This document shows, piece after piece, positions 3,070-12,597 of a stretch of DNA of 13,055 nt (positions within the stretch are counted from its first letter, which is position 1; every line of letters begins with the position of its first letter). Origin of the DNA: a virus (lineage: Duplodnaviria > Heunggongvirae > Uroviricota > Caudoviricetes); IMG/VR virus record IMGVR_UViG_2657245664_000004, positions 1 through 13,055 of that record; one strand, written 5' to 3'. The notes below the pieces were generated by a model. The model searched no databases and was not told the DNA's origin. It saw only the letters and a list, made by a program, of their open reading frames with translations. Both the position numbers and the translations under genes were made by a program.

Positions 3070-3146
3070 GCGTTGTTAGCTCAGCCGGACAGAGCAATTG
3101 CCTTCTAAGCAATCGGTCACTGGTTCGAATCCAGTACAGCGCGCCA
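3070..3146 (+). tRNA. tRNA-Arg (anticodon TCT, reads AGA/AGG; argO/argN-like)
   Basis: Acceptor GCGTTGT / ACAGCGC (one G-U pair), D-arm GCTC/GAGC, anticodon stem ATTGC/GCAAT with loop CTTCTAA, T-arm ACTGG-TTCGAAT-CCAGT, encoded CCA. Confidence 0.85.
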
Positions 3147-3610: not shown

Positions 3611-4001
3611 ATACATATCTGGATTATCACCTGTTACGGTAAAAAGTGATTGCTTACTGTTTTTGTGAATGGCATTGCAGCAGCCGGATAATGTCAGTGC
3701 TGGCTGACGGTGTGCTGGTGGCGGGTGTGGTGGTTGTTGCTTTCCCGTTGCTGAAAAAGAAAACGCCAGACTGTTAGCCGGGTATCAGTTAGCGGGAGAA
3801 ATTTTTAAATACTTCACAATTCAGGCGGTTGACTGTTGTCTGGTTTGCGGGGAGTTTGTTAAAAGAAACTGGCATGGTGAATCCCCCTGTGCGGTGGGGC
3901 AATCAGCGAGTAGGTATATGGGATAATCGCGGATTCAGGTGCTGGTACTGAATTCACCGGGAGGCACCCGACACCATGCAATGGCACATAGCGCCACTCT
4001 C

Positions 4002-4031
4002 CAGCCCCTCTCCGGAGGGGCTGTTTATATT
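4002..4031 (+). terminator. Rho-independent terminator
   Basis: Perfect 9-bp stem CAGCCCCTC / GAGGGGCTG with TCCG loop, followed by TTTATATTGATTTT. Lies just 3' of the convergent minus-strand ORF. Confidence 0.55.
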
Positions 4032-4057
4032 GATTTTGTCAGATGTGAGTAAACTCC

Positions 4058-7307: not shown

Positions 7308-7808
7308 ATGCACACAGGGTTTTTACCGCGTTTATGGTTCGCGGGTTTGTCTCTCATGCTCCCCGTTCTGCTGCTTGGTTCTTCACGTTACGTGGTTGTC
7401 TCCTTTACCCGGAAGATCTGGAGCGCGTCACGCAGATTATTAATGGTGGGAAAAACGGCATTAAAGACCGCCGTGAACGTTACGTCAAAGCTAAAGCCGC
7501 ATTGGTGTGAGGTCTATGTGGGAATTGAAATGATTGTCGGCCTGATTGCTGCCTTGCTGGCAGTAATAGCCGGTGCTTTTGGTCTGGGTAAATCTCGCGG
7601 TGCAAGTATCGCTGAGACAAAAGCGAACCAGCAACGCACTAAAGAACGTGCAACTGCTACTGAAGTCGTTGCAATACGCCGGGTAGAAACAACAAAAGGA
7701 GCCTGGGATGTACAGCAGATTGTTAATCATCTTCCTGATGGCGATGTTGACCGTGAGTTGCGCGAAAGATTTACCCGAAAAAACTGCAGTAACAGACACG
7801 GCTTGTGA
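7308..7808 (+). CDS. Putative envelope/membrane protein (lambda p78 / YbcV-like position); start uncertain
   Basis: ORF in the bor-to-cos interval where lambda and DLP12 carry a putative envelope protein. The C-terminal two-thirds (from MIVGLIAALLAVIAGAFGLGKS..., ATG about 7530) looks like a small TM protein; the N-terminal 70 aa are less protein-like. 3' end overlaps the next ORF by about 100 nt. Confidence 0.4.
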   Translation: MHTGFLPRLWFAGLSLMLPVLLLGSSRYVVVSFTRKIWSASRRLLMVGKTALKTAVNVTSKLKPHWCEVYVGIEMIVGLIAALLAVIAGAFGLGKSRGASIAETKANQQRTKERATATEVVAIRRVETTKGAWDVQQIVNHLPDGDVDRELRERFTRKNCSNRHGL

Positions 7809-7923
7809 CTGGGTGAACATCATCTACCTCACTGAGCACGATATTACCGTGCAGGATAAGCAGACGAAGCGGGACATATTGGCGCATAACAAATCAGTGC
7901 AGGCTAACTGTAGAATGTATTGA
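7708..7923 (+). CDS. Putative small lipoprotein (lambda p79 / YbcW-like position)
   Basis: 71-aa ORF with a signal-peptide-like N-terminus ending in a marginal lipobox (LTVSC). Start may be an internal Met. Confidence 0.4.
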   Translation: MYSRLLIIFLMAMLTVSCAKDLPEKTAVTDTACDWVNIIYLTEHDITVQDKQTKRDILAHNKSVQANCRMY

Positions 7924-8076
7924 AACTAATACTTTTGTAAGCGAATGTGTGTAAGTGCGACATGGTTGTGTGTTTTATCTAAGAATTGTTTTGCCGTAAA
8001 AGAGCATTTTGTGGTTGTAAAAAATGTGGGGAACTCGCTATAGTTCAGCCATAGAAAGCAGCTTTTCATTTTTTTT

Positions 8077-8097
8077 AAGCCTCATTTGAGGCTTTTT
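8077..8097 (+). terminator. Rho-independent terminator upstream of the cargo cassette
   Basis: Stem AAGCCTC / GAGGCTT, loop ATTT, then TTTTT. Insulates the cassette from read-through of the lysis/bor region. Confidence 0.5.
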
Positions 8098-8123
8098 GCA
8101 CATTTAGAAATTGAGTAAATGGC

Positions 8124-8161
8124 ACATATAGTGTTTTCAGTGTTAAAAAAACACTATATGT
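8124..8161. promoter_or_regulatory. 14-bp perfect inverted repeat (candidate operator or 5' stem-loop) in the cassette promoter region
   Basis: ACATATAGTGTTTT (8124-8137) and AAAACACTATATGT (8148-8161) are exact reverse complements around a 10-nt spacer. Contains a TATAGT -10-like hexamer. Ends 25 nt before the ATG at 8186. Confidence 0.45.
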
Positions 8162-8185
8162 AGCACTACAATAGGAGATTCCACT

Positions 8186-8386
8186 ATGAGCCCGGCTGAG
8201 TTCTACGATTTCTATGGCATTAAACCTGCAGAGATGATGACTGGAGAAACTGTTAACAACTTTGCTTCCAGGGTACTTGCTCAACAAACGAGTACGAGTG
8301 GTAGTACCGGCGTTTGGTACTCTCAAGGTACTGCAGCGCAGGCTAAGCAAAATCAAAGTACACATCATCAACTTTACACCTACTAA
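8186..8386 (+). CDS. Hypothetical small protein (66 aa), first gene of the cargo cassette
   Basis: Strong SD AGGAG 8 nt before the ATG. Soluble, with a Ser/Thr/Gln-rich C-terminal half. Stop is 5 nt before the next ATG, suggesting translational coupling. AT-rich relative to the backbone. Confidence 0.6.
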   Translation: MSPAEFYDFYGIKPAEMMTGETVNNFASRVLAQQTSTSGSTGVWYSQGTAAQAKQNQSTHHQLYTY

Positions 8387-8391
8387 ACACC

Positions 8392-9294
8392 ATGCCTAAT
8401 TGGAGTGACGTACTGGGCGAGATGACGGCTCTCGCCCAGAAGAGTCCGATGGATGAGGTTCGCCGTAAATATTTATTACAACTGTCTAATCACACTGGAA
8501 GAAATGTAATTACATATTATTCCGGATGGTTGCAACATGGTGGTGCAGAAGTCCGACATCTCACCCTGATGACAGATGATGATAAAAATGGATTAATGAC
8601 TGTTATTAATGGTTTAGATGTTACAAAGGGGGTGGATTTAATATTACATACCCCTGGAGGTGATATCGCTGCCTTAGAGTCTATTGGTCATTATCTGCGT
8701 TCTAAGTTTGGGACTGATATCAGAGCTATCGTTCCTATGATTTCAATGTCATGTGGTACCATGCTTGCGTGCTGTGCTAATGAAATCATAATGGGTAAAC
8801 AGTCCAATATTGGCCCGATTGACCCTCAGTTTAATGGATTTTCTACACATGCTATTATTGAGGAATGGAATAGAGCTCAGGCGGAAATTTTTAACAATCC
8901 AGCAGCTGTGCAAATGTGGCAGTTTATACTTCAGAAACTCAACCCCACTATTATCGGAGAGTGTGAAAAAGCTATCCAATGGGCGAATGAGATTGTCAAG
9001 CACTGGCTTATGACGGGTATGTTTGCAAATGATCCGGAGTCAGAAACAAAAGCAACTCATGTATGCTCAGAGCTGAACAATCATCATACAACTTACACTC
9101 ATTCGAGACATATCCATTTCGATAAAGCTCAGAAAATTGGATTGAATGTTACAGAACTGGAAAGTGATCAAGTCCTCCAGGATTTGGTTTTGACCATACA
9201 TCACAGTTACATGCACTCGTTTGGTGGAGCCCCGATCGCAAAGATCATAGAAAACCATAATGGGAATGCTATGATTTGGAATATGCAATCGTAA
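8392..9294 (+). CDS. ClpP/crotonase-fold serine peptidase (S49 / SDH-proteinase-like)
   Basis: 300-aa ORF with motifs typical of ClpP-clan S49/SDH peptidases: LILHTPGGD..., a candidate nucleophile Ser in VPMISMSCGTMLACCANEIIMG, and NIGPIDPQ. Family assignment is by motif recognition, not a search. Confidence 0.65.
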   Translation: MPNWSDVLGEMTALAQKSPMDEVRRKYLLQLSNHTGRNVITYYSGWLQHGGAEVRHLTLMTDDDKNGLMTVINGLDVTKGVDLILHTPGGDIAALESIGHYLRSKFGTDIRAIVPMISMSCGTMLACCANEIIMGKQSNIGPIDPQFNGFSTHAIIEEWNRAQAEIFNNPAAVQMWQFILQKLNPTIIGECEKAIQWANEIVKHWLMTGMFANDPESETKATHVCSELNNHHTTYTHSRHIHFDKAQKIGLNVTELESDQVLQDLVLTIHHSYMHSFGGAPIAKIIENHNGNAMIWNMQS

Positions 9295-9317
9295 GAACCT
9301 ATTTACACACCATATTA

Positions 9318-9341
9318 GCCTCGCAGTAGCGGGGCTTTTTT
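9318..9341 (+). terminator. Rho-independent terminator downstream of the cargo cassette
   Basis: Stem GCCTCGC / GCGGGGC (one G-U pair), loop AGTA, then TTTTTTAT. Followed by lambda-like right-end sequence. Confidence 0.6.
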
Positions 9342-9429
9342 ATGCGCATCGCACGCGCACATCAAAGAGAGTCTTTCAGTAATGATTCTGGATATCATAG
9401 CTATAAATACAATTGATAGTTATTTTCAT

Positions 9430-9654
9430 TTTGGCGGGTCCTTTCCGGCGATCCGACAGGCTACGGGGCGGCGACCTCGCGGGTTTTCGCTATTTATGAA
9501 AATTTTCCGGTTTAAGGCGTTTCCGTTCTTCTTCGTCGTAACTTAATGTTTTTATTTAAAATACCCCCTGAAAAGAAAGGAAACGACAGGTGCTGAAAAC
9601 GAACTTTTGGGCCTCTGTCGTTTCCTTTCTCTGTTTTTGGCCGTGGAATGAACA
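9430..9654. other. cos: cos site (cosQ-cosN-cosB); cosN 12-nt cohesive end GGGCGGCGACCT at 9466-9477
   Basis: Exact lambda cohesive-end sequence at 9466-9477. Flanking sequence matches the lambda right-end/left-end junction as recalled, with a few substitutions. cosB-type inverted repeat GAAAGGAAACGACAG ... CTGTCGTTTCCTTTC precedes Nu1. Confidence 0.85.
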
Positions 9655-10200: not shown

Positions 10201-11353
10201 CAGGCTGCGGCATTTTGTCCGCGCCGGGCTTCGCTCACTGTTCAGGCCGGAGCCACAGACCGCCGTTGAATGGGCGGATGCTAATTACTATCTCCCGAAA
10301 GAATCCGCATACCAGGAAGGGCGCTGGGAAACACTGCCCTTTCAGCGGGCCATCATGAATGCGATGGGCAGCGACTACATCCGTGAGGTGAATGTGGTGA
10401 AGTCTGCCCGTGTCGGTTATTCCAAAATGCTGCTGGGTGTTTATGCCTACTTTATAGAGCATAAGCAGCGCAACACCCTTATCTGGTTGCCGACGGATGG
10501 TGATGCCGAGAACTTTATGAAAACCCACGTTGAGCCGACCATCCGCGATATTCCGTCGCTGCTGGCGCTGGCTCCGTGGTATGGCAAAAAGCACCGGGAT
10601 AACACGCTCACTATGAAGCGTTTTTCCAATGGTCGTGGCTTCTGGTGCCTGGGCGGTAAAGCGGCAAAAAACTACCGTGAAAAGTCGGTGGATGTGGCGG
10701 GTTATGATGAACTTGCTGCCTTTGATGAGGATATTGAACAGGAAGGCTCTCCGACGTTCCTTGGCGACAAACGTATTGAAGGCTCGGTCTGGCCAAAGTC
10801 CATCCGTGGCTCCACGCCCAAAGTGAGAGGCACCTGCCAGATTGAGCGTGCAGCCAGTGAATCCCTGCATTTTATGCGTTTTCATGTTGCCTGCCCGCAC
10901 TGCGGGGAGGAGCAGTATCTTAAATTTGGCGACAAAGAGACGCCGTTTGGCCTCAAATGGACGCCGGATGACCCCTCCAGCGTGTTTTATCTCTGCGAGC
11001 ATAATGCCTGCGTCATCCGCCAGCAGGAGCTGGACTTCACTGATGCCCGTTATATCTGCGAAAAGACCGGGATCTGGACCCGTGATGGCATTCTCTGGTT
11101 TTCGTCATCCGGTGAAGAGATTGAGCCGCCGGACAGCGTGACCTTTCACATCTGGACGGCGTACAGCCCGTTCACCACCTGGGTGCAGATTGTCAAAGAC
11201 TGGATGAAAACGAAAGGGGATACGGGAAAACGTAAAACCTTCGTAAACACCACGCTCGGTGAGACATGGGAAGCGAAAATCGGCGAACGTCCGGATGCTG
11301 AGGTGATGGCGGAGCGGAAAGAGCATTATTCAGCGCCCGTTACAACACGCTGA
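10175..11353 (+). pseudogene. A: Terminase large subunit A, N-terminal about 388 codons only (truncated by deletion)
   Basis: Start overlaps the Nu1 3' end as in lambda. Matches lambda gpA from MNISNSQVNRLRH... to ...ERKEHYSAPV, then diverges and stops (TTR*). Lambda gpA is 641 aa. Confidence 0.85.
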
Positions 11354-12597
11354 TGGCGGCGGCGAAAAAGGATTATGAAGCGACGCTGAAAAAGCCGAAA
11401 CAGTCCGGCGTGAAGGTGTCTGCGGGCGATCGTCAGGAAGACAGTGCTCATGCTGCCCTGCTGACGCTTCAGGCAGAACTCCGGACGCTGGAGAAGCATG
11501 CCGGAGCAAATGAGAAAATCAGCCAGCAGCGCCGGGATTTGTGGAAGGCGGAGAGTCAGTTCGCGGTACTGGAGGAGGCGGCGCAACGTCGCCAGCTGTC
11601 TGCACAGGAGAAATCCCTGCTGGCGCATAAAGATGAGACGCTGGAGTACAAACGCCAGCTGGCTGCACTTGGCGACAAGGTTACGTATCAGGAGCGCCTG
11701 AACGCGCTGGCGCAGCAGGCGGATAAATTCGCACAGCAGCAACGGGCAAAACGGGCCGCCATTGATGCGAAAAGCCGGGGGCTGACTGACCGGCAGGCAG
11801 AACGGGAAGCCACGGAACAGCGCCTGAAGGAACAGTATGGCGATAATCCGCTGGCGCTGAATAACGTCATGTCAGAGCAGAAAAAGACCTGGGCGGCTGA
11901 AGACCAGCTTCGCGGGAGCTGGATGGCAGGCCTGAAGTCCGGCTGGAGTGAGTGGGAAGAGAGCGCCACGGACAGTATGTCGCAGGTAAAAAGTGCAGCC
12001 ACGCAGACCTTTGATGGTATTGCACAGAATATGGCGGCGATGCTGACCGGCAGTGAGCAGAACTGGCGCAGCTTCACCCGTTCCGTGCTGTCCATGATGA
12101 CAGAAATTCTGCTTAAGCAGGCAATGGTGGGGATTGTCGGGAGTATCGGCAGCGCCATTGGCGGGGCTGTTGGTGGCGGCGCATCCGCGTCAGGCGGTAC
12201 AGCCATTCAGGCCGCTGCGGCGAAATTCCATTTTGCAACCGGAGGATTTACGGGAACCGGCGGCAAATATGAGCCAGCGGGGATTGTTCACCGTGGTGAA
12301 TTTGTCTTCACGAAGGAGGCAACCAGCCGGATTGGCGTGGGGAATCTTTACCGGCTGATGCGCGGCTATGCCACCGGCGGTTATGTCGGTACACCGGGCA
12401 GCATGGCAGACAGCCGGTCGCAGGCGTCCGGGACGTTTGAGCAGAATAACCATGTGGTGATTAACAACGACGGCACGAACGGGCAGATAGGTCCGGCTGC
12501 TCTGAAGGCGGTGTATGACATGGCCCGCAAGGGTGCCCGTGATGAAATTCAGACACAGATGCGTGATGGTGGCCTGTTCTCCGGAGGTGGACGATGA
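11353..12597 (+). pseudogene. H: Tail tape-measure protein H, C-terminal about 414 codons (fragment fused behind truncated A)
   Basis: Matches the C-terminal half of lambda gpH as recalled (...KKDYEATLKKPKQSGVKVSAGDRQ... to ...MRDGGLFSGGGR). The H reading frame is open from 11302 but has no upstream counterpart. The whole head module and most tail genes are absent between A and H. Confidence 0.85.

Follow-up and report, generated by a model that had tools for sequence, protein, structure and literature searches.

A predicted NrdR operator upstream of a mobile protease cassette in a lambdoid Escherichia coli prophage

Results

A protease cassette in a defective lambdoid prophage

The DNA analysed here, a stretch of 13,055 nucleotides referred to as the window, is a lambdoid E. 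coli prophage in which the order of elements is RusA, the antiterminator Q, two tRNAs, STnc100, holin, lysozyme, Rz, bor, another spanin pair, the cassette that is the subject of this work, cos, Nu1 and gpA. The cassette consists of two genes on the + strand: ORF66 (8186-8386), which encodes a 66-aa protein (phrog_25714), and a gene (8392-9294) for a 300-aa SDH-family serine protease with a ClpP fold (PF01972, E = 3.7e-22; phrog_11747). Both PHROG families are of unknown function, and an intrinsic terminator on the same strand (9317-9336) closes the unit. A first-pass annotation of the window had spoken of a cassette, a term justified by the protease match and by a copy of the unit, 81% identical, in which the coding character of ORF66 is preserved. 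ORF66 had no match in Pfam, and neither cassette protein had one in PADLOC. The AF2 model of the 66-aa protein (pLDDT 57) has two helices and a disordered C-terminal half, and its quality was insufficient for a search.

Most RefSeq records with the cassette leave ORF66 unannotated, although its C-terminus (L-Y-T/S-Y-stop) is strongly conserved. The RefSeq start of the protease corresponds to window position 8449; the conserved region starts further upstream, with the ATG at 8392, six bases past the ORF66 stop codon, which suggests translational coupling of the two genes and a protease of 300 aa.

The 81%-identical copy belongs to another E. coli prophage, where it is flanked by the last gene of the lysis region (annotated as hypothetical) and a further moron. 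Its homology to the window extends from ~8003 to 9380, and the cassette is thus a self-contained moron that brings along ~180 bp of upstream DNA. In other hosts the unit is found directly after Q and pR'-tR', before the holin gene. Among complete E. coli genomes the cassette is present in 49 of 5426, none of them a laboratory strain, and it is absent from the strains with published nrdR transcriptomes.

The prophage is defective, with portal, head and most tail genes deleted. The late promoter region directly after Q (2754-2858) comprises TTGATT, a 16-bp spacer, TAAATT, a pause-type element (AACGATGGG) and a terminator (~2831-2858), and precedes tRNA-Met (2893-2968), tRNA-Arg(tct) (3070-3146) and the sRNA STnc100 (3843-4032). 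Downstream of bor, at 7308-7923, lies the second Rz/Rz1-like spanin pair, beside a remnant that RefSeq calls a partial GH19 endolysin; the pair looks like a leftover of another lysis cassette and suggests mosaic recombination at this hot spot. A lambda-like cos region (GGGCGGCGACCT) occupies 9466-9630. Relative to strain EC14, the large terminase gene gpA breaks off at ~11342 (region 11330-12597). Directly joined to it is the C-terminal portion of a tape-measure gene of lambda type, with minor tail protein M next in line.

A long inverted repeat made of two facing boxes

Directly upstream of ORF66, a repeat search found an inverted repeat with arms at 8124-8137 (ACATATAGTGTTTT) and 8148-8161 (AAAACACTATATGT), which are 14 nt long, 100% complementary and separated by a 10-nt gap, with the same arms and coordinates as in the first-pass annotation. 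The repeat had been called unlikely by chance, and the numbers agree: perfect inverted repeats with arms of 14 nt or more and a loop of 3-30 nt are expected at 0.001-0.004 per 13 kb, and one Markov-1 simulation of the window in 300 attained a length of 14. Just one perfect inverted repeat of the window is longer (16 bp, 9574-9589/9615-9630); it lies in the lambda-like cosB region upstream of Nu1 and looks like a pair of cosB R sites. The overlap with a -10-like hexamer, TATAGT, described earlier is also real (8127-8132, within the left arm), as is the verdict that the element is no classical terminator: the stem is rich in AT and lacks a T-tract after 8161, whereas an intrinsic terminator combines a GC-rich stem with a T-tract.

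Megablast of 7900-8400 against the phage collection gave no match. Rfam at gathering score returned, over the window, only STnc100 and the two tRNAs, all elsewhere than the repeat, and at a permissive threshold (7925-8200) solely sub-threshold matches to eukaryotic miRNAs and snoRNAs, which are hairpin artefacts. Among other promoter and operator motifs considered, a sigma-54 promoter was rejected (TGGCAC is found but the GC at -12 is missing), LexA, CRP, FNR and Fur boxes were rejected upon reading the sequence, and a resemblance to T7/SP6-type phage promoters (ACACTATA) is unconserved in other lineages. A search of the whole window for the half-site ACATATAGT gave no additional copies beyond chance expectation.

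The binding site of NrdR consists of two partially palindromic 16-bp boxes separated by a linker of 15-16 bp, with conserved C4, A6, A8, T9, T11 and G13 in each box, C4 and G13 being the critical positions, and NrdR needs both boxes, an isolated box being left unbound (PMC13584703). The linker may also be one helical turn longer; its length is limited and its sequence is free. Between C4 and G13 the boxes are at least 63% AT, and the NrdR sites of E. coli and P. aeruginosa share a spacing of 31-32 bp, that is, three helical turns. NrdR binds DNA only when loaded with dATP plus ATP or ADP, and its sites overlap the core promoter or sit immediately past it.

As we read the sequence, the inverted repeat is the inner part of two such pseudo-palindromic 16-bp boxes joined by a 16-bp linker. 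Predicted box 1 (8119-8134, ATGGCACATATAGTGT) has five of the six conserved positions (A6, A8, T9, T11 and G13) and a G in place of the critical C at position 4; predicted box 2 (8151-8166, ACACTATATGTAGCAC) has all six, as defined in PMC13584703. The boxes lie 32 bp apart, start to start, with the linker at 8135-8150, so that the pair carries 11 of the 12 conserved positions: all eight A6, A8, T9 and T11 bases, and three of the four C4 and G13 bases, which should stand 8 bp apart in both boxes. The AT content between positions 4 and 13 is 75% in box 1 and 88% in box 2. The left arm of the repeat corresponds to positions 6-16 of box 1 plus three linker bases, and the right arm to three linker bases plus positions 1-11 of box 2. 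Since 11 of the 14 arm pairs follow automatically from two palindromic boxes that face one another, the perfect 14-bp symmetry is largely a by-product of this arrangement.

A third box-like sequence, TTTGCACATTTAGAAA (8095-8110), has five of six positions and the same G4-C5 pattern as box 1, and lies 24 bp upstream of it, which is out of helical phase. Single boxes with five of six positions are common (53 in the window), and this one may be due to chance.

The box pair is conserved and specific to the cassette

We collected homologous cassettes in one scan of species-representative genomes and two scans of viral contigs, and obtained 23 upstream regions of differing sequence (protease identity 61-100%), with sources in E. 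coli, Mangrovibacter, Buttiauxella, Pseudomonas and viral contigs; 19 of them entered the alignment. An NrdR-type pair of partially palindromic 16-bp boxes is found at the same place in all 23, with the full set of 12 conserved positions in 18. The invariant columns of the 19-sequence alignment are A6, A8, T9, T11, G13 and also T14 in box 1, and C4, A6, A8, T9, T11 and G13 in box 2. The conserved unit is thus two direct copies of a ~16-bp pseudo-palindromic box with the core CTAyATrTrGT. In every version the boxes are spaced by 31-32 bp, start to start, and the linker is 15 or 16 bp long (23/23) with unalignable sequence, as opposed to the distance from box 2 to the ATG, which ranges between 9 and 19 nt. 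The arms as such are not conserved: the 81%-identical copy keeps only their outer 9-10 bp, the inner arm and the loop having been replaced. When the regular expression of the authors of the NrdR definition was applied to the 19 versions, all 14 outside the E. coli lineage passed and those of the E. coli lineage failed. Its retention in Enterobacteria and Pseudomonas alike agrees with a motif for a host factor that is universally conserved.

Of the protease relatives found, the most distant (L078, 1080-1500; 49% identity) has a different small ORF upstream and lacks the NrdR pair; there, a different palindrome (AGAACATAGTGTTCT) lies beside a -10-like sequence. Regulation is swapped within the wider protease family.

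Taken alone, the window would not suffice to call the site, as ~7% of simulated windows, counted per strand, contained a chance pair with at least 11 of 12 positions; the case rests on the comparative data rather than on a single sequence. Across ~250 kb of fetched loci, pairs with at least 11 of 12 positions occur once per cassette and nowhere else. A strand-symmetrised PWM built on ten experimentally bound boxes scored the cassette sites at 18.5-34.8 bits (23.8 for the window), compared with 24.9-30.1 for known sites, 15.8 for the best background pair and 11.3 for the next.

A strict double-box scan of viral contigs gave 102 downstream ORFs among the matches listed. The convincingly recurrent clusters among these matches were NrdD, with at least six loci, and one unannotated cluster, with at least four; phage nrdD is the only recurrent downstream family among the strict matches listed that Pfam identifies. 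The presence of nrdD downstream of double boxes in viral contigs indicates that phages do carry NrdR operators. A ~300-aa protein without a Pfam match lies directly downstream of strict double boxes at four or more viral loci, including L152, and may be another non-RNR (ribonucleotide reductase) target of NrdR in phages. A third cluster, with at least four members, was set aside because it looks like low-complexity spurious ORFs.

Given this architecture, its conservation and its specificity, we consider it probable that the palindrome forms the centre of a tandem operator for NrdR (box 1, 8119-8134; 16-bp linker; box 2, 8151-8166), through which NrdR of the host would repress the cassette until dATP falls. 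The first-pass annotation had proposed an operator for a dimeric repressor. A DNA operator agrees with our reading, with a repressor that is probably host-encoded; the proposed dimer site of two 14-bp half-sites does not, the arms being the facing parts of two 16-bp boxes.

The same annotation had suggested the 66-aa protein itself as the repressor. Many antitoxins of toxin-antitoxin systems bind palindromes at their own promoter, the first gene of the operon is small here as in many such systems, and the site accompanies the cassette whatever its genomic context, all of which would suit an operator of a cassette- or phage-encoded repressor, for instance ORF66 acting as an antitoxin-like autoregulator. 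Such a repressor would, however, have to match NrdR by coincidence in every defining detail (the motif, the six invariant positions and the 15-16 bp linker), which would be remarkable. Moreover, ORF66 diverges strongly between lineages and the boxes do not, and its low-confidence model, two helices and a disordered tail, contains no recognisable DNA-binding fold; the first gene of an antitoxin-type operon would encode an RHH, HTH or AbrB protein, and ORF66 has no Pfam or PADLOC match. A role for the 66-aa protein as repressor is unsupported by these data, and we regard an operator of the cassette's or phage's own repressor as very improbable.

Promoters and other elements around the boxes

Three candidate promoters lie upstream of ORF66, all on the + strand. 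P2 (8103-8132) consists of TTTAGA, an 18-bp spacer and TATAGT, with its -10 inside box 1, and scores well in the E. coli lineage only. P3 (8143-8172; TTAAAA, 18-bp spacer, TACAAT) spans box 2 and is less likely, since its transcript would start at about the Shine-Dalgarno sequence of ORF66 (AGGAG, 8173-8177, + strand). The third, P(up) (8015-8044; TTGTAA, 18-bp spacer, TATAGT), is conserved in position and form in almost all cassette versions, and lies ~75 bp upstream of box 1, beyond a hairpin. A -10 hexamer within the boxes in all lineages was ruled out, as position -11 is G or T in many of them.

Across versions, P(up) follows the sigma-70-like pattern TTGnnn, a 17/18-bp spacer and nATAnT, and is part of the mobile unit in all of them; the distance from its -10 to box 1 is about 79 or about 69 bp, values one helical turn apart. 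It was rejected as a phage late promoter pR', because the window and L003 each have a separate pR'-tR' right after Q.

Between P(up) and box 1 stands a terminator-like hairpin on the + strand, GCCTC-ATTT-GAGGC followed by TTTTT (8079-8097; stem-loop 8079-8092), in which five of six pairs show compensatory changes. It begins ~35 nt past P(up) and has a T-tract in most lineages. Together, P(up) and the hairpin would make a ~50-nt RNA or act as an attenuator.

The sequence TTTTGCACA on the + strand (8094-8102), an exact match to the DnaA-box consensus TTWTNCACA, ends 16 bp before box 1 and is conserved in the five variants of the E. coli lineage. In four other lineages (L003, L029, L035 and L036) a perfect DnaA box, TTATCCACA, lies in the spacer of P(up), ~92-95 bp upstream of box 1; L003 has two DnaA boxes. 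E. coli nrdAB is controlled by DnaA as well as NrdR, and by analogy the combination of DnaA boxes with an NrdR pair hints that the cassette mimics the wiring of nrdAB.

Box 1 of the E. coli lineage lacks a critical base

In all five E. coli-lineage variants (the window, L002, L019, L020 and L023) position 4 of box 1 is G and position 5 is C. In vitro, EcoNrdR binding was abolished by the mirror mutation G44C in the native nrdEF site, and was lost when the C-G distance was cut to 7 bp (PMC13584703). The site of this lineage may therefore be a former NrdR operator, in which the change of C4 to G ended NrdR binding and whose sequence is kept for a second use, be it a sigma-70 promoter (TTTAGA, 18-bp spacer, TATAGT), a hairpin or both. 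The fixation of G4 in five of five variants and the occurrence of a good promoter with its -10 in box 1 in this lineage only would both be explained. Within the lineage, however, the linker has almost fully diverged, and positions 3-14 of box 1 and 2-13 of box 2 are nearly unchanged at a preserved 16-bp spacing, a constraint on boxes and spacing that exceeds the need of a -10 hexamer. NrdR can also cope with a single critical base out of place if the site is optimal in other respects (206 nM for the A3C,C4A mutant vs 91 nM), and naturally bound boxes deviate too: box 2 of Sco nrdAB lacks G13, and box 2 of Eco nrdAB and of Sco nrdRJ lack T9 (PMC13584703). The retention of the boxes amid linker divergence argues for continued selection, the strength of NrdR binding there being uncertain. 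Decay of the site in the E. coli lineage is a real possibility, if on balance an unlikely one. Either way, G4 of box 1 is a natural variant that tests the published rules of NrdR recognition.

The boxes can also pair with each other

A 5' UTR stem-loop had been proposed as well for this repeat. On this view the repeat would act mainly in the cassette mRNA, with P(up) or the phage late promoter as the source of transcription, and would control mRNA stability, RNase III processing or translation of ORF66. A 54-nt segment of the window indeed folds at -17.2 kcal/mol (z = -4.7 vs shuffles), with box 2 ending 9-19 nt before the ATG across versions. Box 1 folds onto box 2 in ~20 of the 23 versions, which the genuine sites of E. 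coli nrdAB and nrdDG do not do, and mismatches on the + strand are mostly G-U. Inter-box pairing amounted to 85.0% vs 81.7% in shuffles (reached in 4 of 500) and covariation to 0.245 vs 0.177 (2 of 500), values to be read with the caveat that related sequences can beat shuffles without any structure. One pair is C-G in 12 sequences and U-A in 6, with one exception.

The same numbers limit what an RNA structure explains. As pairing reaches 81.7% even with shuffled partners, almost all of it is accounted for by the palindromic motif. Five of the 13 stem pairs never vary, though the proteins are only ~62% identical, and these invariant, non-covarying columns are the bases conserved for NrdR. The "loop", the 15-16 nt between the boxes, keeps its length and not its sequence, a property of DNA phasing; Rfam offers no match; and a transcript from P2, should that be the promoter, would not include the left arm. 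A stem-loop thus fits the data less well than a DNA operator, and we think it improbable as the main function of the repeat. The boxes are nevertheless more complementary to each other than those of genuine E. coli nrd sites, an excess that NrdR binding does not explain. We infer that it may reflect a second role as an mRNA stem-loop, or homogenisation of a quasi-palindrome.

Discussion

Our analysis points to NrdR, the Zn-ribbon/ATP-cone repressor of the host, as the probable regulator of a prophage cassette. With ATP plus dATP, an NrdR tetramer would bind both boxes, three helical turns apart, and bend the DNA, blocking transcription into ORF66 and the protease gene. The block could be exerted by occlusion of P2, whose -10 (TATAGT, 8127-8132) sits in box 1, or by obstruction of polymerase arriving from the conserved P(up) (8015-8044). 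For the latter route the E. coli nrdAB operon offers a precedent of action on polymerase coming from upstream, as its functional boxes are downstream of the transcription start site. A drop of dATP relative to ATP, possibly caused by replication stress, by prophage induction or by a superinfecting phage that drains dNTPs, would release NrdR from the DNA and derepress the cassette along with the RNR genes of the host. Expression of the cassette is, on this mechanism, probably tied to the dNTP supply of the cell.

Speaking against an NrdR operator are G4 in box 1, the non-RNR target, the terminator-like hairpin between the best-conserved promoter and the boxes, and the excess complementarity between the boxes. 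The target departs from the described NrdR regulon, in which RNR operons (or nrdR itself) are controlled; here ORF66 and the SDH/ClpP-fold protease lie downstream, a difference that concerns the genes and not the DNA site. Genome-wide surveys of K-12 and PAO1 found NrdR box pairs only at RNR operons, and the authors of the most recent regulon study of these strains propose that paired-box repression "is limited to ribonucleotide reductases".

If NrdR does bind at the cassette, this would be the first canonical paired-box NrdR target outside RNR genes, and the NrdR regulon, regarded as RNR-specific, would extend into the accessory genome across Enterobacteria and Pseudomonas. Phages would then wire morons to the dATP/ATP sensor of the host. 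A broader view, to which we give about even chances, is that a mobile prophage cassette has captured the host dNTP sensor NrdR as a switch, silent while dATP is plentiful and firing when DNA precursors are drained, with an operator that may double as an mRNA stem-loop; the result would be a phage accessory or defence module triggered by the nucleotide pool. For the uncharacterised protease cassette, the NrdR operator provides a concrete hypothesis of when it is expressed.

A search of the literature on NrdR in connection with prophages or bacteriophages found nothing comparable. The nearest counterparts are the E. coli nrdAB (boxes 1 and 2), nrdHIEF and nrdDG operons and the nrd operons of P. 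aeruginosa and S. coelicolor, which share with the cassette the two 16-bp boxes, the unconserved 15-16 bp linker, the six positions and the AT-rich core, and whose sites lie at or just downstream of a sigma-70 promoter, as that of the cassette may do. Unlike them, the cassette has a 66-aa protein and a ClpP-fold protease downstream rather than an RNR, resides on a mobile prophage moron, has G4 in box 1 of the E. coli lineage and unusually inter-complementary boxes, and is preceded by a terminator-like hairpin and a further promoter. NrdR-type motifs outside RNR operons have also been reported at topA in Pseudomonas and dnaA in Shewanella, but these are single boxes, and topA does not respond to nrdR inactivation, whereas the cassette has a pair.

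The palindromes of toxin-antitoxin systems and the 5' UTR stem-loops or RNase III sites of other transcripts resemble the cassette in placing a palindrome, capable of a stable stem, directly upstream of a small first gene. In contrast to them, the cassette has invariant positions and a fixed three-turn spacing that fit NrdR; ORF66 has no evident DNA-binding fold, and the covariation is unconvincing. Lambdoid morons such as bor and stx are self-contained units of promoter, gene and terminator, and they share with the cassette both this structure and their insertion hot spots, one past Q/pR'-tR' and one in the interval from the lysis genes to cos; we know of no moron with an operator for a host nucleotide sensor. 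The boxes upstream of phage nrdD in viral contigs are phage-carried NrdR operators that use the host repressor as the cassette would, but that still control an RNR gene. Set beside these systems, the site at the cassette is, as predicted here, an operator of a known kind whose location is new, namely a mobile prophage cassette without RNR genes.
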